This document shows positions 1,196-53,612 of a stretch of 64,000 nt of DNA, one piece after another. Source of the DNA: a virus (lineage: Duplodnaviria > Caudoviricetes); the IMG/VR virus record IMGVR_UViG_3300028888_000127, positions 3,964-67,963 of that record; one strand, 5' to 3'. Position 1 is the first letter of the stretch. Each line of letters begins with the position of its first letter. The translations under genes were made by a program, and so were the position numbers. The notes beneath the pieces were generated by a model that did no database searches, was not told the DNA's origin, and was given only the letters and a program-made list of their open reading frames with translations.

Positions 1196-1810
1196 ATGGC
1201 AGTTTCAAAACAACAATTAGCACAAATTATAGGAAAAGCAAGGGATTTATGTAATCCTGAAGGCGACAGGCTTGTTGAATCATATAAAGGTGATGGTATG
1301 GGCTCATATGACATGAACAATCCAGACCCGTCTCAATTCACTGATTATGAACAATTCGATAGAATGTATCTCAATGAAGAAGAGGATTATCAGCCGCAAA
1401 AAAGAAATGTTCAAACAAAAGACATTCGATATAATCAGCAAACGGCAGCAAATAGCAAAATGCCTGACAAAATCAAACAATCAATGCTTAATGAAGTCAT
1501 AGATGTAACTGCATTGGACAATCAGTCTGTTTTATCAGGAATGGAAATACCTGGCGGAAACAGAAAACCTAAACAAAGTAGAAGGCCCGTTAATGAACAA
1601 CAATATCAGGCACAAGGCGGAAACATTGACTATTCAATAATAAAAGCAATTGTAAATGAATGTCTTAATGAATATTTTTCAAGACAGCCGTTAAACGAAA
1701 GCAATTCAATAAGCACAATCGGGCTAAAAGCCGGCGCAATAAAGATTGTTGACAATAAAGGAAACGTTTATGCAGCTAAACTTGAAAAAATTGGAAATGC
1801 AAAAAATTAA
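1196..1810 (+). CDS. hypothetical protein
   Basis: 204 aa ORF in operon-like spacing with the upstream gene, followed by a terminator. Confidence 0.8.
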   Translation: MAVSKQQLAQIIGKARDLCNPEGDRLVESYKGDGMGSYDMNNPDPSQFTDYEQFDRMYLNEEEDYQPQKRNVQTKDIRYNQQTAANSKMPDKIKQSMLNEVIDVTALDNQSVLSGMEIPGGNRKPKQSRRPVNEQQYQAQGGNIDYSIIKAIVNECLNEYFSRQPLNESNSISTIGLKAGAIKIVDNKGNVYAAKLEKIGNAKN

Positions 1811-1831: not shown

Positions 1832-1861
1832 AAAAGTCGGTCAGAAACGGCTGACTTTTTT
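1832..1861 (+). terminator. intrinsic (bidirectional-type) terminator, repeat family A
   Basis: AAAAGTCGGTCAGAAACGGCTGACTTTTTT; a near-identical copy lies at 23096-23126. Confidence 0.8.
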
Positions 1862-1872
1862 GTTTATAACAA

Positions 1873-1882
1873 ACTATTTATA
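1873..1882 (+). promoter_or_regulatory. putative late promoter motif ACTATTTATA
   Basis: The motif recurs on the coding strand shortly upstream of many start codons across the window. Confidence 0.6.
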
Positions 1883-1898
1883 AAGAAAAGTTTTAGAA

Positions 1899-2300
1899 AT
1901 GAGTAAAAAACAAGTAATTAAAATTAACGAAAATAAACTTAAACAGATAGTAATGGAGTCTGTGAAAAGGGTGCTAAAAGAAGAAGTTGATATTGGACAG
2001 ATTCTGTCTTCATATGATAATAAAGTTGCAAGACAGAATAGAATGAATCTTGAAAATCGCCCAGAAATAACCGCTGCCAGAAAAGAACTAAGACGTTTAA
2101 GAAATTCCATTGAAGATGTAGAACAAAAAGGTGGTGATATTACACCTATAAGACAAAAGATGATAAACATATCAAATCATTATTTTGATAGAAATTACAT
2201 TTGGCATTTGCAAAGAGGTGATAAATGGGTTGATTTCAAAGGCTGGTTTGATATTGACGGAAATCCTGCTCCAGGAAATGAAGAATTGGAATGGGATTAA
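1899..2300 (+). CDS. conserved-leader protein 1 (IKINENKLKQIVMESVKRVLKEE leader plus unique cargo)
   Basis: The N-terminal ~29 aa is shared with ORFs 2493-2774 and 26945-27277; the rest is unrelated. Confidence 0.85.
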   Translation: MSKKQVIKINENKLKQIVMESVKRVLKEEVDIGQILSSYDNKVARQNRMNLENRPEITAARKELRRLRNSIEDVEQKGGDITPIRQKMINISNHYFDRNYIWHLQRGDKWVDFKGWFDIDGNPAPGNEELEWD

Positions 2301-2425
2301 GCAGCGCACTTGACAACTTTAACTTCCTAGAATGTGACAACATTCAGGGCGTGTTCCATAATAGCAGCGAATCTTTCGCCGCACTTCTTTTTTCTAATTT
2401 TGTGCCATCATGTATATAGTTCCCT

Positions 2426-2456
2426 AAAAAAGTCGGCCATTTGACCGGCCTTTTTT
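2426..2456 (+). terminator. intrinsic terminator, direct repeat with 2776-2807
   Basis: AAAAAAGTCGGCCATTTGACCGGCCTTTTTT. Confidence 0.75.
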
Positions 2457-2465
2457 GTATTACTG

Positions 2466-2475
2466 ACTATTTATA
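2466..2475 (+). promoter_or_regulatory. putative late promoter ACTATTTATA
   Basis: ACTATTTATAAAGAAAAGTTTT is identical to the sequence starting at 1873. Confidence 0.6.
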
Positions 2476-2492
2476 AAGAAAAGTTTTGAAAA

Positions 2493-2774
2493 ATGAACAA
2501 GAAACAAAAAATTAGAATTAACGAGAACCAATTAAAGAAAATCGTTACGGAATCTGTGAAAAATGTTTTGAAAGAAGAACAAGAAAATACATATGAAACA
2601 TTAATAGAAATCATGAATAAACTTGATATGATTATGCATAGCGGATTTATACCATTTTCTTCACCAAGTCCATCATCGACAGAAAAAAAAGTCGCTGATT
2701 CAATAAGGCAAGCAAATGAATTATTAAAACAAGCCGCTATTGGTTGTAAACAATTAGGATATGGGCTTAATTAA
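2493..2774 (+). CDS. conserved-leader protein 2
   Basis: MNKKQKIRINENQLKKIVTESVKNVLKEE leader, with its own promoter motif and terminator. Confidence 0.85.
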   Translation: MNKKQKIRINENQLKKIVTESVKNVLKEEQENTYETLIEIMNKLDMIMHSGFIPFSSPSPSSTEKKVADSIRQANELLKQAAIGCKQLGYGLN

Positions 2775-2775
2775 G

Positions 2776-2807
2776 AAAAAAAAGTCGGCCATTTGACCGA
2801 CTTTTTT
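2776..2807. terminator. bidirectional terminator between convergent genes
   Basis: A-tract, AGTCGGCC/ATTT/GACCGACT hairpin, then T-tract; it abuts the polB stop codon. Confidence 0.85.
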
Positions 2808-4090
2808 ATGCTTCAGTTTCTACTTCATTTTCAAATTCAAGAGCATTTATTTTTTCTTCTTTGGCATCCAAAACATCAAGTATTGTACCGATTACAATGT
2901 CTTTATATTCTTTTGACATAAACTTTCCTGTCAATGGGTCAACATCAACAATTTCAAGCATTGCTTTTGGCATGTCTCCATCTTCAAAATCCTCAAGTTC
3001 TTCAAGAGTCATATTTGATACTATTTCATTGAATTTTGCCTTTACCTTATCAATTCCAAGTTGTCTTTCAATTTCCATTCTTTCAATGTAATCATTTTTG
3101 ATTTGTTCCCAATCCATTTCACAGTAATCCAAATACGGTGGTTCCCATTCAGGATGTGACATCCAAAACTTAATTTCCCTATCATCAAGAGTCATAAGTT
3201 GTTCATATGTGTCTTGGTCGGTTTCTTTATTTGGGAAGCCATTGCATAATTCACATTGGTCATATGTGAAATATTGTCTGTCATCAGGATTTGTAATTAG
3301 AATTTTATTTCTAATTTCAGGCCTGAAACAAACCAAAAGAGGTGTAATTCTTTTATTGAATTGGTCAATATACTTTTGTACATTATATTCTTCGCCCTCT
3401 TTACACATTATATCTTCTTCTGAATCAACAATTTCTCTTGGTACCAATTTGCAATTAAGTATTACCTCATCTTCGATTATAACATCTGAATGATGTTTTT
3501 TTACATAATCGTTAAATGACAAAGCACGTTCTTTTGGCGCTAACTTTCCATCAACATTGTTTTTTTTCCATTCTTTTTCCAATGCAACCCTGTAATCGGT
3601 TTTTTCTCCAAATAATCCGTCTACCTTATAATAATGTGTTACTTTTTTTGCATCAGTTTGTGACTTTGTTTTTCCGATATTGATATAATAAATTGTTTCA
3701 CCCATACTAACATTAAGATTTTCTCTTAATGCAAGTTCCATCCATGCTTGTCTTGATTTTGGCCTACCTGCTTTTGTTATTGTTTTGCAATCTTCAATAT
3801 ATTCATCCAATGATTTTTTAATTTTTCCTTTTGAAGCAATCATTTTCAATGGAATTTGATAATTGTAAATTTTTTCGATATAGTCATAATATGCTTCAAT
3901 AAAGTCTTGGCCTTTTTTGCGCAAAAGAAGTCTTATACCTTTTTCCAAGAATTTTGAAATATATTCAGGCATTTTTTTTGACTTAATTGTGTTACCAACC
4001 ATTTTAACATCCTTCGGAAATTCTTCATCAGGGAAATAGTCTGCATAGTTCTTTCTACTAAAGTTAATTGTTGCTGAAACAACTTCATCT
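2806..4090 (-). CDS. polB: family B DNA polymerase, C-terminal subunit exon 2
   Basis: The frame is open upstream of the tracked ATG to 4090: (I)DEVVSATINFSRKNYADYFPDEEFPKDVKMVGNTIKSKK (K-x-Y and palm/thumb region), then SKGKIKK and YNVQKYIDQF. Confidence 0.9.
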
Positions 4091-4407
4091 CATAATATAA
4101 CACTTTTATCTATATGTGTCTTTAAGACTATATCATCACCTTTTTTTAAAAAAGGGCCTCCCATTTCCACTTAATAGTGTACTTCCTTTCGGAATAGTCG
4201 TTGAACCTTTATCTCATTGAGATACTTGGCTGCTTTTAGTTGATTGTCCCATATATAAGGTTTTCACGGTTAAATTGGCATTGCCCAATCTTTTTTATCT
4301 ATATTACTATGATAAAATCGTACTTATATACTCGTTTTTTTTGGGATTTCCAGCAATTAGAGAGGTTATTGCCCTAACATCACTGTTAGGCGGCACAGAT
4401 TCTGTTT
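4091..4407 (-). mobile_element. group I intron (IA2-like, 317 nt, no ORF) in polB
   Basis: P1 is GGCAU/GUGCC with a U.G pair at the splice site. Also P2 CCUAACA-GUGA-UGUUAGG, AAUUGCUGGAAA (P), GCAGCCAAG (Q), GGUUCAACGACUA (R), P7.1 UUCC-GAAA-GGAA, GAUAUAGUC (S) and a terminal G at 4091. Splicing restores KMGLGI-DEVV in frame. Confidence 0.93.
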
Positions 4408-4715
4408 ATGCCAAGACCCATCTTGTTTACACAATTTGGGCCATAGTGGAAGTCTTTCATGAACAAATCATTGAATTCAGCAACATCTGCTTTGAACCCT
4501 ATATATTCAACATCTTTTTTCGTTTCCCTCGACAAGCCAGGGCTTATATATGGATGTTCTTTCGTATATCTGAATCTATCATCATCAGGTAATTTAAAGT
4601 TGAACCCATCAGTGTTTGAAATTGCATTACATCCAAGTGCGTTTACAACACTACCATCAAGTGATATATCGTAAACATAACTAGTTGTTTTTCCTTTGTT
4701 TTTAACTTTCATCAT
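4408..4715 (-). CDS. polB: split intein C-half (34 aa) fused to polB C-terminal subunit exon 1
   Basis: MMKVKNKGKTTSYVYDISLDGSVVNALGCNAISN|TDGFNF...KMGLGI. Intein blocks F/G end in Asn and the +1 residue is Thr of the polymerase DTD motif. Confidence 0.9.
4614..4715 (-). mobile_element. split intein, IntC
   Basis: VYDISLDG (block F), terminal SN (Ser instead of the usual His), followed by the Thr nucleophile. Confidence 0.88.
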
Positions 4716-4741
4716 TTATGCGATTTTTATAAAAGTACAAA

Positions 4742-6427
4742 TTATCTTTCGTTTTTCCAAACATATTTTATTAATCCGCAGTCATATATTTTATAATAGC
4801 CCAATTTTTCAGTCATTTCAGATTCTGTCATTGATAATTGGAAACCATATTTTTTGTGAAGTATTTGCTTTCTTAAATTAAATTTATGAACTCTTTTTTG
4901 CGTGAAATTTATGTTAACATATCTGTAATCAGGCGGAAGAATTTTAATTAGTTTAAATCCTATTTTTGTATATACATTGTTTTCATAATTAATCGTCCAT
5001 CTTCTATCAGCAAATGATTTAACTTCTTTTGGATTAAATATTTTTAAAAAATGCTTAAATAATTTACCGCCAACTCCACAGCAAACATAGTTATAATTTG
5101 TTGCAAATCTAATTAATTCCCATTCGTTATTGTTGTTTACTTTTTTAAATTGCATAACACCGACTAATTTATTTTCAAAAAAAGCTCCATAACTTACTGT
5201 AGAATTGCCATACCCTTGAATATGATATTCTGTTAAAAAGCATTTTGCTTCTTGTTTTGTAATCTCTTTTATTTCACAATTTCTTGCATATATTTTTTCT
5301 TTATTATTATTTAAGCCTAATATATGCTTTAATTTTTCTTTTACGATTTTATCATGGTATAGCCATTCATCTTCGAAAATATGTAATAGGTCTATCCCTT
5401 TATCTTTACATTGTTCAGTTTTAAGCAAATGATAATTTTTATCTTTGTTAAATAACTCAGAGTGCCATCTAATACCATCAAATTCTATAGCTATTTTTTT
5501 TTCAGGTATATATATGTCTAATTCTTTTGGCTTAATAACATTTCTGTTTCTTGTTTCAATTTTTCCTGTATATATTTCTTTTAAAAAACTTATAAGTTCT
5601 TCTTCCCCTGTTGATTTTGAATGCCCACATATTTGGCATCCACTGCCATGAATATGTGCATCTGGCGTTTGTAAAAATTCTCCATGTTTAGGACAAATTA
5701 TTGTTATATTGGATTTAGAATTAATATAGTTAACTTTTGAATAATCATACTTATCTCCATGTATTTCTTTTGCCTTTTTAACAAAATCATCAAGTTTCAT
5801 TGTCTCTGCAAAAGAAGCGTTAATTCTTCCACATTTAGGACATCCACATTTTAAATTATTATGTGCATATGGAGTTTGCCAAAACTCGCCATGCTCAGGA
5901 CATATGATGCAAACTTTAGTATTTGCATTAACATATTCTGTTTTTGAGTAGTCATATTTGTTTCCATGAACTTCTTTTGCTTTTTCTATAAAATCTTCTT
6001 TTTTAAATGAAAATAAAATCCTTTTTTTATTTGAAAAGCATTTTGGACAGCCATTACCATTTAAATGAGCATATGGTGCTTGACAAAATTCTCCATGTTC
6101 AGGACAAATTATACAGACTTTAGTCCTATTGTTTACATATTTCACTCTTGAATAATCATATTTTTCACCGTGTACTTTTTTTGCTTTTTCTATAAAATCT
6201 TCTTTATTATTTTTTTTTGCATTATTTGATTTTATATGGCCACATTTAGGACATCCACATTTTAAATTGTTATGCACATATGGAGTTTGCCAAAATTCAC
6301 CGTGCTCAGGACAAATTATACAAACTTTAGTATCACAATTTTTATAAATTACTTTTGAATAATCATATCTATTATTGTGAATTTCTTTTGCTTTATTAAT
6401 AAAAAATATATTTTTATTTTTTTCCAT
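4742..6427 (-). CDS. free-standing Hef-like homing endonuclease (4 Zn repeats, Vsr/PD-(D/E)XK nuclease, Mom-like GNAT domain)
   Basis: 4 x KAKxxHxxKYDYS...CPxHGEF..GCxxC; LDIYIPEKKIAIEFDGIRWHSE...HIFEDEW; IYARNC...ELIRF...SFADRRW...YTKIGF. Confidence 0.85.
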   Translation of the reverse strand: MEKNKNIFFINKAKEIHNNRYDYSKVIYKNCDTKVCIICPEHGEFWQTPYVHNNLKCGCPKCGHIKSNNAKKNNKEDFIEKAKKVHGEKYDYSRVKYVNNRTKVCIICPEHGEFCQAPYAHLNGNGCPKCFSNKKRILFSFKKEDFIEKAKEVHGNKYDYSKTEYVNANTKVCIICPEHGEFWQTPYAHNNLKCGCPKCGRINASFAETMKLDDFVKKAKEIHGDKYDYSKVNYINSKSNITIICPKHGEFLQTPDAHIHGSGCQICGHSKSTGEEELISFLKEIYTGKIETRNRNVIKPKELDIYIPEKKIAIEFDGIRWHSELFNKDKNYHLLKTEQCKDKGIDLLHIFEDEWLYHDKIVKEKLKHILGLNNNKEKIYARNCEIKEITKQEAKCFLTEYHIQGYGNSTVSYGAFFENKLVGVMQFKKVNNNNEWELIRFATNYNYVCCGVGGKLFKHFLKIFNPKEVKSFADRRWTINYENNVYTKIGFKLIKILPPDYRYVNINFTQKRVHKFNLRKQILHKKYGFQLSMTESEMTEKLGYYKIYDCGLIKYVWKNER

Positions 6428-6439
6428 TTTCGTTTTTTT

Positions 6440-6449
6440 TATAAATAGT
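6440..6449 (-). promoter_or_regulatory. putative late promoter ACTATTTATA
   Basis: Lies 13 nt upstream of the ATG at 6427. Confidence 0.6.
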
Positions 6450-6490
6450 TTATAATCCTAAATTATTAAACATTTTACCATCAAATCAAA

Positions 6491-8167
6491 TTATCTTTTG
6501 TTTTTCCAAATATATTTTAAAGTTCCGCAATCATATATTCTATACCACCCATTGTTTTCACAAAATTGTTTTTCTGTCATATTTTTAGGACATCCATATT
6601 TTTCAACTAAAATATTTTTCCTTAATGAAAATCTATTAATTCGTTTTTTATTTATAACATAAAAATAACTTGGTTCTGTTGTTCCATAAAATTCAAATCC
6701 AATGGCTTCATATAAGTTTCCATTCGACCATCTTCTATCGGCAAAAGTTTCAATTTTTAAAGGATTGTATTTTTCAATAAAATATTTAATCAATTTACTT
6801 GCTGCACCAATAACATTAAAATCTATCTTGTTACAAAATCGAATGAGTTCATAAGTGTTGTCTTCATTTTTTCTTGAAATGTTTATTCTTTTTTTGCCAA
6901 AAGTCATCAATGAAACTAATTCATCTTTATAATAAAGTCCAATTCTTATTTTTGACGGTACGTATCCTTGTAAATGATTTGTTTGTAAAAATAATTTACT
7001 GTCACTTAATGACACTTCTTTTATTTCACAATTCCTTGCGTATATTTTTTCGCTTGTTAAATGTAATATATTTCTTATTCTACTTTTGCAAATTTCATTT
7101 TTATACTTCCATTCATCTTCGAAAATATGAATTAGAGTAACATTTTTTTCTGCGCATTTTTCCGTTTTTAATAAATGATAATTTTTATTGTTTTCAAATT
7201 TTTCAGAATGCCAAATCAACCCATTCATTTCAAAGCCAATTTTATGCTTTGGTACATAGACATCTATTTCTTTTCCGTCTAATATGCTCCTATCATTTTC
7301 TACGATGGTTTCGTTTGGTAATATTTCTTGTATAAACTCTAACAATTCTTTTTCCACAAAAGATTTATCTTTAAAGCATTTAGGACAGCCTTCGCCAAAA
7401 ATATGGTTTCTTGCTATTTGCGAAAATTCTCCATGAATAGGGCAAATTATAGTAACATTATTTTTACTGTTAGTATAATCAACTTTGGAATAATCATATT
7501 TATTACCATGTGTTATTTTTGCCTTTTCAATAAATTCTTCTGTTGTTAATGTTTTCTCTCCTGAAGTTTTTTCATGCCCACAAATAGGACACCCTTGTTT
7601 CCCTTTTATGTGGTTGTTGAATGTTTGATAAAAAACTCCATGTTGTTTACATATAATAGGATATTTTTCTCTATCATTTTTATATTCAGTAATTAACGAA
7701 TAATCATATTTATTTCCGTGAATTTCTTTAGCCAGAGAAATGACATCTTCAAGGCTTCTTCTTTTACCATTTGCTGATTTTATATATCTACACTTTGGGC
7801 AGCCTTCACCGGAAAGCAAATGTCCTGGCACTATTTCGAAATCTCCATGGTCTTTACATGTAACAACTATTTTTGTCTTATTGTTTATATATTCAACTTT
7901 GTCAAATGAATAATTAGAGCAATGTTCCAATTTTGATACTTTCTCTATGAATCTTTTTGTGTCATATCTGCCTTTATTACTACAGAATGGACATCCTTGT
8001 TTCCTACTTATGTGGTGTTCAAAATCCTTATAAAAAACGCCATGCTCTTTGCATATTATAGGGTTTTTTATTTTCATTCCTCTATATTCATTAATCAATG
8101 AATAATCATAAGCATTGTTATGAATTTCATTTGATTTTGTAATTAAATCGTTTAATTTGTTTTCCAT
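6491..8167 (-). CDS. second Hef-like homing endonuclease (same architecture)
   Basis: 4 Zn repeats; IDVYVPKHKIGFEMNGLIWHSE...HIFEDEW; YELIRFCNK...TFADRRWSNGNLYEAIGF. Confidence 0.85.
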   Translation of the reverse strand: MENKLNDLITKSNEIHNNAYDYSLINEYRGMKIKNPIICKEHGVFYKDFEHHISRKQGCPFCSNKGRYDTKRFIEKVSKLEHCSNYSFDKVEYINNKTKIVVTCKDHGDFEIVPGHLLSGEGCPKCRYIKSANGKRRSLEDVISLAKEIHGNKYDYSLITEYKNDREKYPIICKQHGVFYQTFNNHIKGKQGCPICGHEKTSGEKTLTTEEFIEKAKITHGNKYDYSKVDYTNSKNNVTIICPIHGEFSQIARNHIFGEGCPKCFKDKSFVEKELLEFIQEILPNETIVENDRSILDGKEIDVYVPKHKIGFEMNGLIWHSEKFENNKNYHLLKTEKCAEKNVTLIHIFEDEWKYKNEICKSRIRNILHLTSEKIYARNCEIKEVSLSDSKLFLQTNHLQGYVPSKIRIGLYYKDELVSLMTFGKKRINISRKNEDNTYELIRFCNKIDFNVIGAASKLIKYFIEKYNPLKIETFADRRWSNGNLYEAIGFEFYGTTEPSYFYVINKKRINRFSLRKNILVEKYGCPKNMTEKQFCENNGWYRIYDCGTLKYIWKNKR

Positions 8168-8215
8168 AGCATTATTTATATATAAATATCCAAATAATCC
8201 AAAAAAGCAATTATT

Positions 8216-8785
8216 TTATTGTACATTTTTTAGAAATTGTAATCCGGCTAAACATGTTTTTGAAAATTTTACGTTTTCATCATAATTTTCCATGAAAATT
8301 TTATAAAAAAGTTTTTTATATGATTCTGAATAATTAAGTACTTTTTGTGGAACCCTATCTATTTCTCCTTTTGCAAGTGCAATTGCAGACTCATGGATAT
8401 ATTTTCCTTGGCTCGCAAGATATCTTATATTAGGAAAATCTATTTTTCCGTTAAAATATTCAAGTTTAGTATTGTCTGTTATTTCAGAAGGCTTGATTTT
8501 TTCTTTATTTGAATCAAACAGGCTATGGTCTTCTGTGACTTCAACAAACATTTCTCCATCTGAAATTTCATAAATATCCTTATCCGTTTTATGCCTATAA
8601 ATATAAGATGGCTCTACCCATCCACTTCTACATAATACATAATATGGTTTTTCCCCATAATCGTATTCACGGCCTAATTCATCAATGCTAATTTGACTTT
8701 CATCAATAAGTTCACATATAGGAACAATGTCAATAAGCCCTGTTTCTTTGTACTTAATAAACAACGGCGTATCTTCTGTAAAAGA
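8216..8785 (-). mobile_element. split intein, IntN (189 aa)
   Basis: Block A SFTEDTPLFIK and block B VEVTEDHSLF. There is no intein C-terminus before the stop codon. Confidence 0.9.
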
Positions 8786-10786
8786 ATCTCCAACAATTGG
8801 TTGATATCCAAGTTTTGTAAACCAATAAATCATTAGTCTAAGTGCCATTCTACCGGTACAAGTTGTTCTCTCAGCGCAAGCAATAGAAGCCCACGGAAAA
8901 ACATTAGGTGCACCATAAGAACCAAAAAATGAATTGCCAAAAATTTTCAGAGGTAACTGTTTTTTATCATTTGCAGATTCCTCTTGTGCAGCATCCAACA
9001 TTTTCCTGTTAAGTTCGTCTTTTAAATGTAAATCCGAACAAGATTCTATTTCTTTTTTATATTTGTCTTTTTCTTTACCTGCTTTTTTCTTTAAATCTTT
9101 ATATTTTTCACGCTGTGTTAAAACGTGTTCCAAGAAATAAAGCATAGAATGAAGCAAATCTTTTGCATCAGTGATACCCCAAGTAAGAATTATTGATGGA
9201 TAAAGTGAATTATAGTCAAATTTTGCAACATTGTCAACGAATCCAACTTTAAGAAGACGTGAAAGTCCACCTGTGAAAGTTTTTCTTTCTGAAAATTGAG
9301 GGATTGCCAAGTTGTTTTCATAACTCCAAGCAAGCATAATTGATTTCCACTGGCCAGCTGTACCCATTGTACAGCACTTGTCAAATGGAACAGGAATCAT
9401 TTTACAAATAAGGAAGTTTGGTGTGTTGTAACGATGTTCCACCATGTCACATTCCCACAAGTCATCAAGCAAATATTTTTGTCCTATATATTTTCCGTCA
9501 ACAACTTTATATCCTTCCAAAAGTTTGTTCTTTGTGTAAAGGACAAAAGTTGGGTTGTCTTTTCCTTTTTTCAATAATAGTTCTTCACTTTCACAAGAAT
9601 GATTTTCATCATATATATACCAATCACCTGTTTCATCGTTAATTGCAAATTTCCTATCATTATCATTCCAAATGTCTGAAATTTTATCACCCGGTATGTA
9701 AACACGGTTTTCTTTAATCAAATCTGAATACTTACTAACATACTTCAAATTTGAGAAAAGCATATTTGAATCCAATGCTTGTGCTCTTCTAACAGCATGC
9801 AAAGAATCGGTGATTATTATATTTGGAACAATAGTTTTATTGAATTTTTCAATTTCGCCACCTAATTTCAAAATTGACTCACGTTCATCTTTTCTGATTG
9901 ACTCTCCATTGAAAAATTTCTTTGATAGTTCTTCAAGAGAAGTTCCAAGTCTTTCACAAGCGCCAATAATTAACTGCCAGTCAAATGCCTCTCCATTATG
10001 TGCAGTAATTACATCGGGCCTAAAAGTATAAATTATTTTTAAAAATGTTATAATGCCATTTAATTCTGAAATATTTTTTTCTTCTTCAGTATTACCTTCA
10101 ACATTAATTAATTTTTCAAATTTAATATATTCCCCTTTATATTTTACAGGGCGATTAAATCTTATACCAAACTGTTCTATTCTATCCTTTTTTGTGTTAA
10201 GACCAGTTGATTCCAAGTCGAATATAAGTCTTAAAATATCATTATAATCCTCATACCCCTTAAAGAACCTCTTTCCTGTTGAAATCATGAATTGCTCTTT
10301 GGGCGTAACAGTTAAATACTGTTTTTCTTCATTTTTTTGGGTTCCACCTTTGTCATCTTTCTTTTTTCTACTCGAAACAGGATTTCCTGCTTTTTTGAAA
10401 AAGTCCAAAAAGTCAGAATAACTCATCGGTACTGTTGCATAGAACAAATATGTATATCCATTCTTAATTTCTTCTACAACTTCACCATCAGAATTTGTCA
10501 CATCAAGTGCCTTAACCCATATTCTATATTTTTTTAGCAGATATCTTACTTTTTGTTTATCACCATCACATAGCCTTTTGCAAGCCTTTTCTGTCGCCCA
10601 CAAAAACGGCATAAATGGTTCTTGAGAAACACATTTGTCATCGTTTTCGTTTCTGTAAAATACTGTTATGAAATTATTTTGATATTTGTAATCAAGGTTT
10701 ACAATTCTTTCTTGTTCGTCTCTACCATTTAAAAACGTACTGATTACTTCAGGAGTAATCTCTTTTTTAATAAAATTTTGCCCCAT
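8216..10786 (-). CDS. polB: family B DNA polymerase N-terminal subunit (3'-5' exonuclease, motifs A and B) fused to split intein N-half
   Basis: ExoI LIFDLESTG, ExoII AHNGEAFD, motif A KFDYNSLYPSII, motif B KIFGNSFFGSYG, then YQPIVGD|SFTEDTP (intein start). Confidence 0.93.
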   Translation of the reverse strand: MGQNFIKKEITPEVISTFLNGRDEQERIVNLDYKYQNNFITVFYRNENDDKCVSQEPFMPFLWATEKACKRLCDGDKQKVRYLLKKYRIWVKALDVTNSDGEVVEEIKNGYTYLFYATVPMSYSDFLDFFKKAGNPVSSRKKKDDKGGTQKNEEKQYLTVTPKEQFMISTGKRFFKGYEDYNDILRLIFDLESTGLNTKKDRIEQFGIRFNRPVKYKGEYIKFEKLINVEGNTEEEKNISELNGIITFLKIIYTFRPDVITAHNGEAFDWQLIIGACERLGTSLEELSKKFFNGESIRKDERESILKLGGEIEKFNKTIVPNIIITDSLHAVRRAQALDSNMLFSNLKYVSKYSDLIKENRVYIPGDKISDIWNDNDRKFAINDETGDWYIYDENHSCESEELLLKKGKDNPTFVLYTKNKLLEGYKVVDGKYIGQKYLLDDLWECDMVEHRYNTPNFLICKMIPVPFDKCCTMGTAGQWKSIMLAWSYENNLAIPQFSERKTFTGGLSRLLKVGFVDNVAKFDYNSLYPSIILTWGITDAKDLLHSMLYFLEHVLTQREKYKDLKKKAGKEKDKYKKEIESCSDLHLKDELNRKMLDAAQEESANDKKQLPLKIFGNSFFGSYGAPNVFPWASIACAERTTCTGRMALRLMIYWFTKLGYQPIVGDSFTEDTPLFIKYKETGLIDIVPICELIDESQISIDELGREYDYGEKPYYVLCRSGWVEPSYIYRHKTDKDIYEISDGEMFVEVTEDHSLFDSNKEKIKPSEITDNTKLEYFNGKIDFPNIRYLASQGKYIHESAIALAKGEIDRVPQKVLNYSESYKKLFYKIFMENYDENVKFSKTCLAGLQFLKNVQ

Positions 10787-23095: not shown

Positions 23096-23126
23096 AAAGT
23101 CAGTCAGAAATGGCTGACTTTTTTTT
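23096..23126 (+). terminator. intrinsic terminator, repeat family A
   Basis: AAAGTCAGTCAGAAATGGCTGACTTTTTTTT; two mismatches to the 1832 copy. Confidence 0.85.
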
Positions 23127-25962: not shown

Positions 25963-26898
25963 ATGAATGTTTTAGTTACTGGCGCAGAAGGACAACTTGG
26001 CAGGTGTATTGTTGATGTGTTCAAATATTTTGACAACGAAAACAAATATATTTTTATGCCAAGAGAACTTTTTGATTTAACAAATAAAGAGCAAATGCAT
26101 GAGCAGTTTGAAATGTTTAATCCTAATATTGTTGTAAATTGTGCTGCATATACAAATGTAGAAAAAGCTGAAGAAAATTCAATTGATACAATTAGCGTTA
26201 ATTATCTTGGAGTTGGGGATTTAGTAAAACTATGTGAAACTTATGGTGTGTATTTAATTCATATTTCAAGTGATTATGTTTTTAATGGAAAGTCAAGTAA
26301 ACCATACAAAGAAGATTCAAATGTAAACCCATTAAATATTTATGGGGTTTCTAAGGTAGGTGGAGACAATTTTGTTGTCGGATACAACAGAGGAATTGTT
26401 TTAAGGACTTCTTGGCTTTATTCTGAATATGGGCATAATTTCTATAGAACTATGATTGAACGAATAAAGGAGCAAAAAGAAACAAACGTAGTTAATGACC
26501 AAATAGGAACGCCAACATATGCAAAAGATTTGGCTTTGTTTATAGTAAGAGATTTGATTGCTTCAAATAAATATAAAGAAGTTAGAGGCATTTACAATTT
26601 TTCAAATAATGGAATTGCTTCTTGGTATGATTTTGCTTCAATGATAGAAACATTCTATCAAAATTTCGGTCCATATGAGCCAATGATAAAAGACCCTGTT
26701 GATATTAAATTTGAAGTAAGTCCATATCCTAAAAAATACATAAGTCCAACAACAAAAAAATATAAGACAAAAGCAAAAAGGCCAATGTATTCAGTTCTTG
26801 ACAAAACAAAAGTTGAAAATGAATTTGGAATTAAGATTCCGCATTGGACTGAATCATTATTGAAGTGTATGAAAAACGATGGAAAAATAAAAGGCTGA
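25963..26898 (+). CDS. rfbD: dTDP-4-dehydrorhamnose reductase
   Basis: MNVLVTGAEGQLG, NCAAYTNVEKAE, ISSDYVF, YGVSK, LRTSWLY, DQIGTPT, RPMYSVLD. Confidence 0.93.
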   Translation: MNVLVTGAEGQLGRCIVDVFKYFDNENKYIFMPRELFDLTNKEQMHEQFEMFNPNIVVNCAAYTNVEKAEENSIDTISVNYLGVGDLVKLCETYGVYLIHISSDYVFNGKSSKPYKEDSNVNPLNIYGVSKVGGDNFVVGYNRGIVLRTSWLYSEYGHNFYRTMIERIKEQKETNVVNDQIGTPTYAKDLALFIVRDLIASNKYKEVRGIYNFSNNGIASWYDFASMIETFYQNFGPYEPMIKDPVDIKFEVSPYPKKYISPTTKKYKTKAKRPMYSVLDKTKVENEFGIKIPHWTESLLKCMKNDGKIKG

Positions 26899-26916
26899 TT
26901 GTTAGTCAGCCTTTTT
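26889..26916. terminator. bidirectional terminator; direct repeat with 27500-27527
   Basis: AAAAGGCTGATTGTTAGTCAGCCTTTTT. Confidence 0.85.
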
Positions 26917-26944
26917 ACATATATAATGGTGTTTTTAATCCTTG

Positions 26945-27277
26945 TTAAAAGTTTTCAAGTATTTCTTCAAATACTCTTCTTCTTTCTGGTTTACTAAGAT
27001 TTAGTTCTTCTGCATACTTATCGGTATTTGGGTTCCCTGACCAAATCTGAACTATCCCATCATCAGTAAGATGAATGTAGTCAACTAAACTGCCATTAGC
27101 CACAATTCTGAATTTTGAAACACTAATTGTATTTGTACCAAATTCCTCAAATAGTTCATAGATATCAGAATATCCATTCTCTTTCAATAATCTCGTTTCC
27201 TTTAGTACTTTCTTTACACTTTCAGCAACAATCTTCTTAAGTTGTTGCTCATTTAATTTTATTATATTCTTTTTCAT
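26945..27277 (-). CDS. conserved-leader protein 3
   Basis: MKKNIIKLNEQQLKKIVAESVKKVLKE leader; promoter motif at 27379-27388. Confidence 0.85.
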   Translation of the reverse strand: MKKNIIKLNEQQLKKIVAESVKKVLKETRLLKENGYSDIYELFEEFGTNTISVSKFRIVANGSLVDYIHLTDDGIVQIWSGNPNTDKYAEELNLSKPERRRVFEEILENF

Positions 27278-27499
27278 ATTCTTGTTTATTTTTGATTCTT
27301 TTGTTATTCCTTCATCAATAAAGATAATAGAAATGTTGATACAATGAGACGGTTCTATTAAACGTTATCTACTTTTATTATAAATAGTTTATCTTTGTGA
27401 AAAAGATGAAATATGTACAAGAAATTAGCTGACTTAAATACTGTTGTGATATTATTTGTTGCCAATATATTGAAACAACAAGTATATTATCCCAAAAAC

Positions 27500-27527
27500 A
27501 AAAGGCTGATTGCTAGTCAGCCTTTTT
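27500..27527. terminator. terminator; direct repeat with 26889-26916
   Basis: AAAAGGCTGATTGCTAGTCAGCCTTTTT (1 mismatch). Confidence 0.85.
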
Positions 27528-29174
27528 CCATATATACCTGATTAAGCCACAGTCGTATATCTTTTCGTACCCAAGTTGCTTCGTCATTTCTGATTCTGTC
27601 ATTGATAACGGTAATCCATATTTATGGTTTAGCAGTTTTTTTCTAAAGCCAAACTTATGCTGCCTTTTGATTCCATCGGAAGGGCTGAAGTATTTGTAAT
27701 CCGGCTCTGTATATCCGTCAAATACAAACCCAAGTTTTGTATAGACATTTGATTCTTCGTTTATTGTCCATCTTCTGTCTGCAAAGGATTTAATAACGTC
27801 AGGGCCGTATTCCCTTACGAAATATTTGAAAAGTTTACCACCAACACCTTGGCAAATGTAATTGTAATCACTTGCAAATCTAACCAATTCCCATCTATTG
27901 CTTTCTTTTGTTTCTTTTTTGAATGACATTACTGCTATTAGCAAATCGTTAAAAAATGCCCCAATGCTAATCGTAGAAGGACCATATCCTTGTATATGGT
28001 ATTTGTTAAGGAAACTTTTAGCCAAACCATTGTCAATTTCCTTTATTTCACATTTTCTTCCCATTATCTTTGGAAGGTTTTCGCTAACACCAACCAAATG
28101 CTTTATCTTGTTTAGCACAATATCCTTGCTGTTTACGTATTCGTCTTCGAAAATCTGGATTAGTTTTACCCCCTTTTCTTTACAAGCATTTAGTTTTTTT
28201 AAATGGTTGCTTTTTTCTATGTTTGAATGCCAAAAAAGGCCATTATATTCAATCCCAATTTTTAATGACGGAACATAAATATCTATTTCTTTTGGAGGAA
28301 TTAGTTTTCTTTCGCTTTGTATTACATTTTCTTTTCCAATTAATGATGTAATATAATCAAAAATTTCAGATTCTGCTTTTGATATATGATGAACACACTT
28401 TGGGCATCCGTTTCCGTCAAGATGCCTCCATGGAGCTTGCCAAAATTCGCCGTGTTTTGGGCATATTATGCAAACTTTGTTTTTTCCCGTAACATATTCA
28501 GTTTTTGAATAATCATATTTGTTATTATGTATTTTGTTTGATTTTTCAATGAAATCTTCAGTTGTTAATCTTTTTGACAAACCAAGTTCTTCATGGGCAC
28601 ATTTTTTACAAGATGAACCTTTAAGATGCAAATATGGCAATTGATAAAATTCTCCATGTTTAGGGCAAATTATACAAACTTTTGTAAGCATATCAATGTA
28701 TTCTGTTTTTGAATAGTCATATTTACAATTATGAACTTTATTTGCCTCTTGTACAAAAGTTTCCGTTGTGTATTTTTTATTCTTATGGATTGATTTCGAA
28801 CATATAGGACAACCTTTTCCTTTTAAATGGTTATGTGGGTCTTGAAAAAATTCGCCGTGTTCTGGGCATATTATACAAACTTTTGTGTGGCTATTAACAT
28901 ATTCAACTTTTGAGTAGTCATATCTATCCCCATGTATTTGCTTTGCTTTTTCAATGAACGAGTTATTAGAGCTCTTCATTGTTTTTGAACAGAATGGGCA
29001 TCCTTGTCCAATTAAATGTTTATCTGGCCTTTGAGAAAATTTTCCATGTTTTTTACAAATTATTGTTATGTTAGTTTTATTGTTTGTATAAGATACTTTT
29101 GAATAGTCATATCTATCTCCATGTATCTGTTTTGCTTTTTCTATAAAAGTTTTTGTTGTATTTTTTTTACTCAT
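27513..29174 (-). CDS. Hef-like homing endonuclease (4 Zn repeats, nuclease, Mom-like GNAT)
   Basis: EIDIYVPSLKIGIEYNGLFWHS...QIFEDE; WELVRFAS...KSFADRRW...YTKLGF. Confidence 0.85.
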   Translation of the reverse strand: MSKKNTTKTFIEKAKQIHGDRYDYSKVSYTNNKTNITIICKKHGKFSQRPDKHLIGQGCPFCSKTMKSSNNSFIEKAKQIHGDRYDYSKVEYVNSHTKVCIICPEHGEFFQDPHNHLKGKGCPICSKSIHKNKKYTTETFVQEANKVHNCKYDYSKTEYIDMLTKVCIICPKHGEFYQLPYLHLKGSSCKKCAHEELGLSKRLTTEDFIEKSNKIHNNKYDYSKTEYVTGKNKVCIICPKHGEFWQAPWRHLDGNGCPKCVHHISKAESEIFDYITSLIGKENVIQSERKLIPPKEIDIYVPSLKIGIEYNGLFWHSNIEKSNHLKKLNACKEKGVKLIQIFEDEYVNSKDIVLNKIKHLVGVSENLPKIMGRKCEIKEIDNGLAKSFLNKYHIQGYGPSTISIGAFFNDLLIAVMSFKKETKESNRWELVRFASDYNYICQGVGGKLFKYFVREYGPDVIKSFADRRWTINEESNVYTKLGFVFDGYTEPDYKYFSPSDGIKRQHKFGFRKKLLNHKYGLPLSMTESEMTKQLGYEKIYDCGLIRYIWKKAD

Positions 29175-40302: not shown

Positions 40303-43300
40303 ATGGATGAGCATAAAAACATGGGTAGGTTAAGATATTTTGACCCAAATACTACTGTTTTGGAAAACAGGGAGGGGACTAATTCTGATTCCATAACGTT
40401 TCCATATGAAGATTACAATATTGCTGTTGATTTGCAGATAAGGGTATATAATAGATATTCTTGCGGGTTTGGCGATATGACAGGGGATATGCAGGTTTTT
40501 GAATATTCAACTCAGAACGGGACGTTATCTTTTTTAGGTGGAACTGATGGTTTTTTAACTACAAACTATACAGACATACAGATGATAAATCCTTCTGGAA
40601 ACACAACAGAATGCCTTGGCATAGAATCAATACAAGTTTCATATGAAAGTTGGCTACATCCAGTTGTAAATGTTGTATTTGTTGATGTTAGGGGCGGTAC
40701 TGTTATGCAACCCGCAGAATCTCATTATTATAATGAGAATGAAAAAGGTAATACATATCAAATATATAAGTCACTGTTTTCTTTTCCATATCCTTTGTTT
40801 CTTTTAAAGGTTAAAGGATTCTATGGACGTGGTGTTACTTATAGACTTGCTGTTAGTAAAACAGATATAGATTTTGACGCAAATAGTGGTAATTTTAAGA
40901 TTTCTGTTGATTTTATTGGTCATATTTATGGGCTTTTTGCGGATATACCAATGACATATATTGCTGTTGCTCCATATATGGAAGAGGGTGATAGATATTG
41001 GATGCAAAAAGTGAATGAAAAGAAGTTTTGGTTCTATAAAATGGATAAAAATGGAGATTTAGTAGCACAATCTCCAATGCTTAAATTTCCAGAATTAACG
41101 CTGAGAGTTGCTGAAGTTGCATATTCACAGCCAGTTGCAAAGGTAAATGCAGATTCAGAATTGGCAATGCAAACTCTTGACGAAGAGGTTAATTCATTAA
41201 ATTCAATTATGGAATCATATAAGGTGTTTATTGATGGCTCTAATGTTGTGTATTATTGTAATGATTCAGGACATCCTGACCAATCTTTTATTTTCTACAC
41301 ACTTGCAGACAGTGGTGAAATGAGGAAAAACGATGTTGTTAGTGGCGCTGCTAACACTTTTTTCACAAAACTTGAAGAACACGATAAAACATATAATACG
41401 ACTTATAAGAGTAAATTTAATAGCCTATGTTTAATTTGGAAAAACGAAGAAAACACAGTTGATTGTGAAATCCTTGAAGACGGGTCTGTTAAACGAAAAG
41501 ACGGAAATGAAGAAATTTTTGATATTTATATGAAAAACAATCCTAATTTACAGAAATTTGTTAAGGAAAATTTAAATGTAAATAATGTTAACATAATAAG
41601 TTTTGGCTTTCGTAATTTTGCAAAAAACGGAGAGGATTTTAATGATATTATCAATGTTCAAATTCCTGAGGAGATAAAGAAAATACAAGAAAATAAAGGT
41701 AAGGTAGAAAAGGAATTTAAGGACAAACAAAATGCCTTAATTGAAGATGCTCTTGGGTTTAGACCATCAATTAAGAATATGTATGATTTGGCATTTGCTC
41801 ATCTTGACACATTCATGTATGTCTACTATGAAATGCTTAGAAAAATTAGAAGACAACTTGAAATGAAAGGTGATGAACGGAAGAAGGTTACGTATTCTAT
41901 AAGTGATGAATATACAGATACTGAAAAATCCGATGCGCCTGGTGCAAATGGGTTTGTTAGGGGTGCGTATTTACCACCATATACAGGATTTTACAAAGAT
42001 ACGGTTGATGCATCTGATGGCTTTAAAAAGAAAAAAACAATGATGTGGCCTGGTGATTTACCAAATGGCGATAGAAAATTAGAGGAAGTAAAATTTGTTT
42101 TTGAATTACTTAGTGGGGCAAAATTGTATTTTAACAGGTCAGACGATGTTAATTTTGCCATTGATGGATTTAGGGCTTCTGGCTCAACAGGTGCTATATC
42201 AGGAAAACATCCATTGACAGATGTTAAGCGTTTTATACCGTTGACAATTTATGATATTGCAAACAATGGAAAAACTATTAATCCATATTTGAGCGTTGCA
42301 AGTAAAATAAAAAATAATGCGCCATTTGATGAGGTCATAGGTGATGTTTATGGGATTTTCGCATTAAGATTGTTCTATTATATGAATTCTTGTAGTGATG
42401 GAGGTAACAATGTTGATGATAACGAAAGTAAATTTTTCGGCAGACTGGACGCTATTAACTTTTTCAAAGCTGTTGGCAAAAGCGAATCTCCTGTTCTTCA
42501 TAAGTTTGTTAAGGAATTTGCCGATGAAAATATGAGAAAAGACAGAATTGCATTTGAATCTGCAATATCTTATGATGGTAGTTCGGTTGAGACTATGGAT
42601 ATTGGCGGTAGAAACGTAAATGTTAAGCCTGTAATGTCATGGCGTGTCGATGATTCTGCTAATACAAATATAAATTTGTTTAACCGTTCAAAAGGAATAT
42701 ATACTTATTACTATTCAAGTATCAATACCGTTTATAATAATGGGACATATTTTGCTAATTTTAGGTATTTTCCTATTCGTTTAACCAGTATGGAAGATTT
42801 AAAAAATACGTTTTCAAACGGATACCCATTGTATAAAGAGGGGTTTATTTCTTCGATACAACATGAATCATATTCAGGGAGTACCGATGGGTTTAGTGAA
42901 GGAAAAACGCTTAAAGGAGGTACTTTTATGCTTTACGAAACAAGGGATTATATTAAGACTTTGTATAAAAACATAGAGGCTGAGTTGAATCAAGAAAAAG
43001 GTGATAATACGAATGAAATAATAGATGATAAATATTTTGAAGCAGTAAAGGGCGGAAGTACATTCAGAGGTTTCGCAAACAATATTGATGAAGATTTTCC
43101 AAGAATGTATAATAAAAGAATTGTAGAAAAAGTTGATAATGCCGAAACGAAGGCTGGTAGGAAAGATGTTGCCACTATGACCGCCGAAGACATGGCACAA
43201 TTTATTATTGTATATCCTGATGCTATTGACGAGGGAAGAAGCAAATCGCAATTCGATGTAAATGAAGACAACCTTGTTGACGAGGCAGATTCTTTGTTGG

Positions 43301-50460: not shown

Positions 50461-51684
50461 ATGGCACAGCCACAAAAAAAAGCACCTATTAAAAAGAAGA
50501 ATACAATTTCAGATTTAAAAGCGAAAATGGGATTTGGAGTTTCTGTTGAAAAGGGAGAGATACAAAACGCAAGTAATGCAGATAAACCACTGGAATGGTT
50601 GATTATGCCTAAAGCATTTCAGGATGCACTGAAACTTCCCGGTTATCCGATTGGGTTCGTAAGCACAGTATGCGGACATAGCAACAGTGGAAAATCCACA
50701 TTAATAAATCATGCAATTGTAGCAGCACAGAGACAGGGGTTAATACCAATTATATATGATACTGAGAATAATTTTGACTTTCAGTATGCAATAGATATGG
50801 GAATGGATGCAACACCTGTTTATGGCGATGTAAACGTTGAAGTTGTTGACCCAGAAACAGGTGATGTTTCAGTTGTTAAAGAAAATAGGATAATTGAATA
50901 TGATGGCCCTTTTGTTTATTTTAATAATTCAATTTTAATTGAAAGATACGGCGATATTGATTATTCAACAGGAAAACGAGGCTCGAAAAAAAGAAATAAG
51001 GCTGTAATTGAAGATATTGCATATTCAATAAATGAATTTTTAGAATATCAATCAAATGGAGATATAGAACAAGGATTCGTGTTTTTATGGGATTCTGTTG
51101 GAAGTATTGGCGGTTTGAAATCTTATAATAGTAAAGTTGGAAATCCTATGTTTGATGCTGGAACTATTTCGGCTGCAATGCAAGATATTATGGACAGTGC
51201 AATACCTTCTTCGAGGAAAGTTTCCTCTAAATACACAAATACAATGATAATGGTTAATAAGGTTTGGCTTGATAATACAACAAATCCAGTAGGGCCACCA
51301 AGTTTAGAATTAAAGGGTGGTAGAAGCATTTTCTTTAGAAGCAGACTTATAATTTTGTGCGGTGGGATGCTCAAGTCATCTGTAAAAAAATTAACAGCAA
51401 CTTCAAAAGGGCTTAATTATAACTGGGGTATACAAACAAAAATAAAGGTTTTAAAAAATCAATTGCCAAGCCCGTTTAATGTAACATATGAAGGTGAATT
51501 TATTTGTACTGATATTGGTATTATTGGCACAAGTAAGGAGGAACAAGATGAGTATAAAAAGACAAGAGCAAACGAATTACTTAAAAAACTAAACGAAATT
51601 GCGGAAGGTAATGGATGCTCAAAAATTAACGATATTGGTGAGATTTCATTTGAAGAAAGTAGTGAAGATGAAATAATTGATTAA
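50461..51684 (+). CDS. uvsX: RecA/UvsX-like recombinase
   Basis: GHSNSGKST (Walker A), IYDTENNFD, FLWDSVGS, MVNKVW, KGGRS. Confidence 0.85.
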   Translation: MAQPQKKAPIKKKNTISDLKAKMGFGVSVEKGEIQNASNADKPLEWLIMPKAFQDALKLPGYPIGFVSTVCGHSNSGKSTLINHAIVAAQRQGLIPIIYDTENNFDFQYAIDMGMDATPVYGDVNVEVVDPETGDVSVVKENRIIEYDGPFVYFNNSILIERYGDIDYSTGKRGSKKRNKAVIEDIAYSINEFLEYQSNGDIEQGFVFLWDSVGSIGGLKSYNSKVGNPMFDAGTISAAMQDIMDSAIPSSRKVSSKYTNTMIMVNKVWLDNTTNPVGPPSLELKGGRSIFFRSRLIILCGGMLKSSVKKLTATSKGLNYNWGIQTKIKVLKNQLPSPFNVTYEGEFICTDIGIIGTSKEEQDEYKKTRANELLKKLNEIAEGNGCSKINDIGEISFEESSEDEIID

Positions 51685-52733: not shown

Positions 52734-53612
52734 ATGAAAGTTTTGATTTCAGAGGAGAGACTGTATGGGTTGATTTCAGAATGTGTAAAGAGAATCCTTT
52801 CTGAGAGCAAAGTTATTACGGAAGGTTCAAGCCTGTTGTATCATTTTTTGAATTTTGACAGGTTTAAGTCTGTAGTGGAGACCAATATGTTTACTCCTAC
52901 ATCTTTCGAGAAAGGATGGTTCGGCGGTAAAAACTCTATTTCACTGTCTAGAACCAAGAATTTCAGGGAAGGATGGCCTGTTATAATGTATTCAGGTGAT
53001 GACGGAAAGGGTGACGATTGGTGTGCTATAAGGCTTACGATTGACGGAGATTTAATCAATAGGAAACCGAACTTTAAATATAACGGAAAGCAATACAATA
53101 TGTCAACCAAGGCTTTTGATTGGGCCTACAAGGAGTTTGGGGACGGGGACCCGTATGATTTTTCAGACAATACTGGTGTTTTCGCCAACAACGGGAAGGA
53201 ATGGATGGAGAGGTCCGATGGATACACTACTTCGTATCTTCCGATAGACTATAATGGAGACGATGAATACTACAATGGAGTGTGTGATAAGCAAGGCCAT
53301 CCATATTCACAGGCAGAAGACAGACTTACGACATATGCAGACAAAATACCAAACGCAAACCAATACATACTTAGCGTAGACATAGTGTTGCTTACGCACA
53401 ATTTTAACGACGACAACATGAATGAGCGTATTGAACTTTGCAAGATATGTGAGAATTCTTTCCTTAAAGGAAAAATACACATTTATCGTAGCGAGCGCGA
53501 CTTGATGCTCGGCAGATGGCGTGAAATACGCAACATTCGTGGCTTTTTGCTAGATGATTCTTATTATGAGAATCCGATACCTTTTTATGACAATGTAAAA
53601 AGGGACTTTTAG
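52734..53612 (+). CDS. leader-bearing protein with possible ADP-ribosyltransferase-like fold
   Basis: Leader-like MKVLISEERLYGLISECVKRILSE; LYHF...SISLSR...IRLTIDG...QAEDR. Confidence 0.45.
   Translation: MKVLISEERLYGLISECVKRILSESKVITEGSSLLYHFLNFDRFKSVVETNMFTPTSFEKGWFGGKNSISLSRTKNFREGWPVIMYSGDDGKGDDWCAIRLTIDGDLINRKPNFKYNGKQYNMSTKAFDWAYKEFGDGDPYDFSDNTGVFANNGKEWMERSDGYTTSYLPIDYNGDDEYYNGVCDKQGHPYSQAEDRLTTYADKIPNANQYILSVDIVLLTHNFNDDNMNERIELCKICENSFLKGKIHIYRSERDLMLGRWREIRNIRGFLLDDSYYENPIPFYDNVKRDF

Follow-up and report, generated by a model that had tools for sequence, protein, structure and literature searches.

Organization of the leader-gene units

The 64,000-nucleotide stretch of virus record IMGVR_UViG_3300028888_000127 analysed here (positions 3,964 to 67,963 of the record; hereafter the window) carries two tandem gene units between a conserved 204-aa gene and the convergent C-terminal part of a family-B DNA polymerase gene (PolB), and a third unit of the same kind on the minus strand further along. 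The open reading frames (ORFs) of the three units, ORF1 (1899-2300, +), ORF2 (2493-2774, +) and ORF3 (26945-27277, -), have ~29 N-terminal residues in common, here termed the leader (consensus M.KK..I.INE..LK.IV.ESVK.VLKE), and continue into bodies that are unrelated; no further strong leader copy was found on the 68-kb contig. The features of these loci are given below, with related genomes denoted G001 to G005 and loci in relatives by L numbers.

1196-1810 (+): conserved 204-aa gene, left anchor of the variable spot; homologues 33-100% identical
1832-1861 (+): terminator hairpin T1; -15.5 kcal/mol, z -5.65
1873-1894 (+): promoter-like motif P1, core ACTATTTATA; 22-mer identical at 2466
1899-2300 (+): ORF1, leader (1899-1985) and body A; homologues P0002-P0007
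2296-2403 (-): what is left, at the 3' end, of an IS1595-family transposase gene, containing an in-frame TAG; identity of 82-86% to the corresponding part of the 311-aa transposase genes of G001 and G005
2399-2424 (-): solo copy of a 26-nt transposon terminal inverted repeat (TIR), exact GGGAACTATATACATGATGGCACAAA; abuts the hairpin at 2426
2426-2456 (+): hairpin T2', degenerate copy of T2, abutting the transposon TIR; -9.4 kcal/mol
2466-2487 (+): promoter-like motif P2; 22-mer identical to P1
2493-2774 (+): ORF2, leader and body B; body B is the sole cassette in L082 and is fused after body C in L001
2778-2807 (unstranded): hairpin T2, bidirectional terminator common to ORF2 and the convergent PolB fragment; repeat of the 2426 copy
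2806-4002 (-): PolB C-terminal fragment, right anchor; collinear with the PolB of relatives
23096-23121 (+): T1-like terminator 3' of the tail sheath gene; empty site for the transposon el1 of G005
26883-26925 (unstranded): 43-nt hairpin repeat downstream of ORF3, overlapping the stop codon of an RmlD-like gene
26945-27277 (-): ORF3, leader shared with ORF1 and ORF2, and a unique body
27379-27388 (-): promoter-like motif 102 nt upstream of ORF3
27494-27536 (unstranded): 43-nt hairpin repeat upstream of ORF3, overlapping the final codons and the stop codon of the homing endonuclease gene at 27513-29174

Units 1 and 2 are built on a common terminator-spacer-promoter-leader module of ~155 nt. Its promoter-like 22-mer, ACTATTTATAAAGAAAAGTTTT, is found at two positions only, 1873 and 2466 (expected 0.04), and the same holds for the 22-nt hairpin repeat AAAAAAGTCGGCCATTTGACCG, at 2426 and 2778 (expected 0). 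The repeat around ORF3 extends over 28 nt with 1 mismatch, or over 43 nt at 93% identity when extended (26883-26925 against 27494-27536), and the flanking repeats of 24 and 28 nt (<=1 mismatch) compare with a maximum of 21 nt around 277 control ORFs. T1 is orthologous in L001 and L080 and has a near-copy with 2 mismatches at 23096; TTTATAAAGAAAAG is present 5' of T1 as well, which had been overlooked in the initial annotation of this DNA. The stems of all six hairpins are terminator-like, with folding energies between -9.4 and -15.5 kcal/mol and z between -2.4 and -5.7; the copy at 2426 is the weakest. The tandem units, the repeats, the hairpins and the three leader-sharing ORFs that the initial annotation reported were all recovered in place and exceed what is expected by chance, and an independent metagenome contig from another sample, L079, is 100% identical to the window over 3312 nt; the repeats are therefore not a product of misassembly.

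The core ACTATTTATA lies 13-35 nt upstream of ~12 window genes, among them the tail sheath gene, one baseplate-region gene and one homing endonuclease gene, and is therefore a general promoter-type motif of the phage that is not specific to the cassettes. Judged by eye it is not sigma-70-like, and it is plausibly a middle or late promoter; the label 'late promoter' originally given to it is plausible, since tail sheath and baseplate-region genes have the motif in front of them too.

Gene content between the two anchors differs among close relatives

Homologues of the 204-aa gene were found at 7 viral and 18 metagenome loci. PolB follows in all of these, always convergent with the 204-aa gene, and what lies between the two anchors varies. 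The viral contigs bearing such homologues measure 208-393 kb, and the present contig (67,963 bp, 32% GC, viral, 19% complete by CheckV) is therefore a fragment of a jumbo myovirus. At least four arrangements are present between the anchors in close relatives, more distant ones being empty or holding other genes (P, promoter-like motif; percentages, nucleotide identity of the flanks).

Window and L079: T1-P-leader-bodyA-[remnant]-T2'-P-leader-bodyB-T2
L082 (84-91%): T1-P-leader-bodyB-T2 only
L001 (90-95%): one 191-aa ORF, leader-bodyC-half leader-bodyB
L080 (92-93%): leader-bodyD, then the same insertion sequence (IS) remnant fused to a T-run; no unit 2
L086: a different leader ORF
L004, L007 and L085: empty
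L002 and L003: unrelated minus-strand genes

The ORFs between the anchors are thus not fixed, and aligning the locus across relatives reveals both presence/absence and swaps. This bears out the earlier proposal that self-contained units of promoter motif, ORF and terminator are gained, lost and exchanged between close relatives without an integrase.

The breakpoints at this locus fall in coding sequence. Homology between the window and L001 extends to 1985 and resumes at 2534, in the middle of the leader of ORF2. Relative to L001, identity in ORF1 is 95% over the 60 nt upstream, 89% over codons 1-12 and 67% over codons 13-29, whereas for codons 13-29 the identity is 86% with L080 and 80% with a transposon-borne leader. 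The leader of ORF1 is therefore a mosaic, L001-like in codons 1-12 and L080/transposon-like in codons 13-29, with a crossover inside the leader. The window and L082 differ by exactly one repeat unit, measured from promoter-leader to promoter-leader; two modules in one phage and one in the other is the signature of promoter-early stem-loop (PeSL) shuffling (PMC2839356), with the difference that the module here reaches into coding sequence.

An IS1595-family transposon carries leader genes

The 'spacer' that follows ORF1 (2296-2430; about 125 nt) is a transposon remnant, a feature overlooked in the initial annotation. It keeps only the last ~108 nt of the transposase gene, next to the solo TIR. 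An intact transposase gene at L049 (1505-2437, -) matches the Pfam family DDE_Tnp_IS1595 with 151 bits and a Zn-ribbon domain with 35.8 bits. The stop of a leader ORF overlaps the transposase stop in the window, in G001 and in G005, and the three bodies differ. At the same spot L080 contains a remnant that was truncated independently of, and differently from, that of the window. At 2327-2329 the window remnant reads MEHALNVVTF-TAG-EVKVVKCAA, the codon of the TAG being GAG or GAT in intact copies. Some large gut phages are known to recode stop codons; here the TAG is probably simple decay.

Two elements bounded by inverted copies of the 26-mer are present in G005. The first, el2, is 1,485 bp long; it contains a 110-aa leader ORF convergent with the transposase gene and is flanked by an 8-bp target-site duplication (TSD), AAAAATTT. 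The second, el1, is a non-autonomous element of 2,045 bp with three ORFs, including a leader ORF of 164 aa, and an 8-bp TSD, AAAATAAA. A leader ORF is enclosed by each of the TIR pairs in the phage records (3/3), the pair in G001 being without a matching TSD. When el1 and one copy of its TSD were removed in silico, the joined flanks gave a single high-scoring segment pair both to the window (23487-22725) and to G001 (149483-148701), so that the window hairpin at 23096 represents the empty target site; el1 is inserted into the T-tract of the terminator that corresponds to this hairpin. By our own count, a terminator lies within about 25 nt in four of the five insertions examined. The possibility that el1 is the same recent element as that in the 38708 region of G001 was rejected, the similarity being 70-77% over short stretches only. 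Inside el1 (G005 5767-5940; L060), ~40 nt around the leader start are duplicated, and a 240-aa ORF ends in a truncated leader start, MNKKQVIQS*; the G001 homologue of this ORF is an in-frame fusion to a full leader ORF, 343 aa in all.

The transposon is not confined to phage records. A 2.8-kb copy on the contig CALBNP010000052.1 of a Bacteroidales metagenome-assembled genome (MAG) (L100, 2371-5171) has a transposase of 91% identity, the same 26-nt ends and the TSD CATATTTA, and differs in its cargo of GC-richer ORFs of 319 and 127 aa. The sequence of this copy suggests either that the transposon is shared by phage and host or that a mobile element was mis-binned. The closest cellular relatives of the transposase are found in Bacteroidales and Prevotellaceae MAGs. 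Our searches of the literature gave no account of large phage genomes in which DDE transposons have clear target duplications and empty sites, and nothing specific on IS elements in jumbo phages.

The ORF3 locus and the part played by terminator hairpins

Around ORF3, the window ceases to be homologous to its nearest relative, G001, at 26892 and is homologous to it again from 27496, inside the two hairpin copies; at this site G001 has two other genes and G002 a single hairpin. This swap, which breaks exactly at the two copies, counts in favour of the mechanism originally proposed, in which terminator hairpins are the crossover sites and the cassettes they bracket are excised and inserted in the manner of PeSL mini-circles, with neither an integrase nor a transposase. 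At the units 1-2 locus, by contrast, the breakpoints map to the leader or the IS remnant, and none of the 13 leader ORFs of G001 and G005 has flanking hairpin repeats. The repeats around units 2 and 3 are longer than any at the 277 control ORFs, but the homology that hairpins offer, 22-43 nt, compares with about 130-155 nt for the promoter-leader module. The hairpin family itself (GTCAG.C...G.CTGAC) gives a divided answer: it is enriched near leader ORFs and transposon ends, with 3 of the 7 family hairpins of G001 lying <=130 nt from leader ORFs that, by our arithmetic, span ~2% of the genome, yet the same hairpins close ordinary genes such as that for the tail sheath, and the pattern was defined post hoc, from the data. 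Finally, T2 in L001 (11279-11309) is the exact reverse complement, with a flipped loop, of T2 in the window (2778-2807) and in L082 (~6985-7015), which suggests an inversion by exchange between hairpin arms. Taken as a general account, crossover at the hairpins is unlikely. We conclude from these sequence comparisons that the hairpins would join in some events as short homologies or as transposon targets, and are probably not the crossover sites that define the system.

The copy of the repeat downstream of ORF3 retains the last eight codons and the stop of the neighbouring homing endonuclease gene (YICKKAD* versus YIWKKAD*). As ORF3 lies directly downstream of this gene (27513-29174), one of at least four of its kind on the contig, the repeat could be read as a homing scar, left when leader genes hitch-hiked by co-conversion on adjacent free-standing homing endonuclease genes. 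However, in G001 the same endonuclease gene occupies this place and ORF3 is absent, neither unit 1 nor unit 2 adjoins any such gene, and a 43-nt duplication is not a normal product of homing, all of which makes this explanation very improbable. A degenerate transposon end upstream of ORF3 was considered and rejected, its score of 23 being within the null range (95th percentile 24).

A probable mechanism for the exchange of leader genes

The observations are best accounted for, with a probability that we place at roughly 0.7, by a hyperplastic spot of a jumbo myovirus at which a family of leader genes would be moved both by recombination through the leader and by an IS1595-family transposon, the hairpins having a lesser part. 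The first of these two processes would be homologous recombination within the conserved terminator-promoter-leader module, with crossovers inside the leader coding sequence, and its probable engine would be the phage's own UvsX-type recombinase. The second would be transposition of the IS1595-family element, with its 26-nt inverted ends and 8-bp duplications and with leader genes as passengers, into the A/T tracts of terminators. Both processes may have acted on unit 1, where a leader gene brought in on the transposon would have been joined to the resident promoter and leader by a crossover within the leader, after which the left end would have been lost and the copy would have decayed, becoming immobilised. 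The terminator hairpins would be ordinary terminators that in some events, as at unit 2 and ORF3, were duplicated or served as short stretches of homology.

Several points weigh against this mechanism. The 22-nt and 43-nt hairpin repeats around unit 2 and ORF3 fit neither a leader crossover nor an 8-bp TSD, and no significant trace of the transposon was found in the ORF3 unit. The window is without the left TIR, so that it is the remnant, together with synteny to the intact copies, that speaks for unit 1 having come from a transposon. More generally, both recombination and transposition are deduced throughout from the comparison of metagenomic contigs. Nor are all members of the family mobile, as some leader genes are stable as orthologues across three genomes (the L011, L019 and L023 pairs) and thus belong to a stable core of the family. 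The tandem pair concerned lies at 123358-124359 in G001, at 41126-42145 in G005 and at ~101250-101794 in G002, and its bodies are of the ENEG... and ...EEDMEEGFFGNM... types.

A scheme in which one small gene was simply duplicated in tandem and then diverged, without mobility that continues, would explain why units 1 and 2 are adjacent and have a terminator-promoter-leader sequence in common, but it is scarcely tenable in view of the unrelated bodies, the presence/absence variation among relatives 84-92% identical in the flanks, the transposon remnant and the mosaic leader.

Comparison with known systems

The modular shuffling by PeSL elements of T4-type phages (Arbiol et al. 2010, PMC2839356; Comeau et al. 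2014, PMC4122927), to which the locus had been likened at the outset, proves a fair analogue. In both cases a repeated module of terminator stem-loop and promoter adjoins ORFan genes in hyperplastic regions, an ORF lies between two modules in one phage where a relative has a single one (the window against L082; ORF3 against G001/G002, single hairpin), no integrase is involved, and a T4-like recombinase is encoded in the genome. The present module differs in that it runs ~87 nt into coding sequence, the leader, where the mapped crossovers fall, and in its promoter: ACTATTTATA also serves structural genes, whereas the PeSL promoter is a strong, sigma-70-like early promoter. A transposon is also involved here.

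A second parallel is the internal protein (IP) locus of T-even phages, whose diverse internal proteins share a capsid targeting sequence that is conserved, and nothing else, according to the account of Repoila et al. 1994 given in PMC3012670. The likeness lies in the unrelated small proteins with a common short N-terminus, in the polymorphic locus and in the T4 gp21-type prohead protease encoded by the relatives. The leader, however, has 29 residues versus about 10 in T4 and no similarity to the T4 targeting sequence; it is also dispersed at 6-13 loci per genome and is often internal or repeated within one protein.

IS1595-family insertion sequences with passenger genes have reportedly been described by Siguier, Gagnevin and Chandler in 2009 (a work cited in PMC7986276). 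The present element resembles this family in its DDE_Tnp_IS1595 domain with an N-terminal zinc ribbon, its TIRs, its 8-bp AT-rich target duplications, its passengers and its non-autonomous derivatives, and is distinguished by its occurrence in jumbo phage genomes and by a cargo of leader-family genes with a phage promoter.

Like integron cassettes, the units are small, hold a single gene each, can be exchanged and follow one another in a string, with imperfect palindromes as their limits. In the phage, however, every unit comes with a promoter and a terminator of its own, the boundaries do not form a conserved recombination site and the hairpins are plain terminators. No integrase family is among the matches of the flanking ORFs, a result to be read with the fact that no contig-wide integrase search was made, and no attC-like site was seen nearby, again with no systematic search. 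The term 'integron-like', used in the initial annotation, is accordingly abandoned: the system is a variant of PeSL and T-even IP-locus shuffling with an added cargo transposon, and is neither integron-like nor defined by its hairpins.

Genomic context of the window

The window encodes a tail sheath protein, baseplate-region proteins and a family-B DNA polymerase broken up by homing endonuclease genes, together with gp32-like, DnaB-like, PhoH-like and UvsX-like proteins, the last of these being as follows.

50461-51684 (+): UvsX-like recombinase; phrog_97, E 5.9e-17

The PolB C-terminal fragment (2806-4002) was assigned by position, its own sequence having no family match. PolB is a single gene of 1158-1176 aa in L002, L005 and L007; in the window (2806-10786), L001, L003 and L004 its N and C parts are separated by 1-2 homing endonuclease genes. 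Between the PolB fragments of the window, the non-coding segment 4122-4209 has a short megablast match (81-92%) to Twort-like phages of Staphylococcus and to Lak megaphages of Prevotella, and may be an intron core. An Rfam search of the window at gathering thresholds returned no family, and a tRNA search returned none.

The leader family and its possible function

Leader motifs are abundant in related phages. A profile of the leader finds it at 6-13 places per genome in the five related genomes, in ~30 distinct ORFs, 97-343 aa long, whose bodies are unrelated; several of these ORFs stand in tandem and some have two copies of the motif. Body A and the body of ORF3 are absent from all five genomes, two of which are at least 93% complete, and ORF1 alone, used as a query against viral contigs, gave no match. 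In a search of 1.84 billion cluster representatives, the profile retrieved 7,176 proteins with E <= 0.001 and 360 with E <= 1e-10. Many of these proteins have 2-4 copies of the motif, or internal or C-terminal copies; no Pfam domain and no name was found in any of the leader-family proteins of the database. An assignment of the leader to the Pfam family PF25734 (RelB_like_antitoxin) was rejected: ORF2 scores 22.5 bits, below the gathering cut-off of 27, and only 1 of 33 family members gives a match. In the AlphaFold model of ORF1 (pLDDT 68), an N-terminal helix of residues 11-31 is followed by a disordered linker and a separate helical body, and the ESM Atlas held no informative neighbour. A 292-aa ORF of the window (52734-53612) has a divergent, leader-like N-terminus (domain E 2.7e-7 with a 33-sequence profile); it is flanked by the PhoH-like and exonuclease genes and is not part of the structural region.

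Some features of the family may point to the capsid. A prohead protease (Peptidase_S77) scores above cut-off in G001, G003 and G004, whereas the 68-kb fragment itself lacks one. Directly upstream of the prohead protease gene of G003 lies the gene for a 205-aa protein in which the leader motif is strong and internal (L098, 830-1447; E 9.8e-16); this we take, by gene order, to be the position of the prohead core genes 67/68 of T4. The near-invariant residues E11, E20 and E28 of the leader each stand in an [ILV]-x-E context, presumably equivalent to the cleavage motif of the T4 prohead protease. By analogy with the internal proteins of T-even phages, the leader might thus be a capsid-targeting signal, a possibility to which we give about one chance in three; the many internal and repeated copies of the motif weigh against a strictly N-terminal signal. 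In L099 (G001:79261-82743), the Peptidase_S77 matches lie in two pieces within one open frame of 607-622 aa, which suggests an intein or other in-frame insert.

A fuller picture, which we offer tentatively and hold to be somewhat less likely than the targeting role by itself, is that the leader would be a prohead-core targeting signal cut by a gp21-type protease, and that the genes bearing it would form an arsenal that is packaged and injected, for example against host defences. In the jumbo phages of Bacteroidales this arsenal would be shuffled by a two-tier system, in which leader-guided homologous exchange would be combined with a cargo transposon that is shared with the host and homes to terminators.

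The leader-gene system offers a testable picture of how accessory genes may be renewed in giant gut phages, with the conserved promoter-plus-leader acting as a portable homology arm and a cargo-carrying IS1595 transposon moving leader genes from site to site, from phage to phage and, it appears, between phage and Bacteroidales host. Thousands of protein clusters without annotation are defined by the leader motif, and, if it is indeed a packaging signal, it would provide both a label for a large class of injected phage proteins and a capsid-loading tag.

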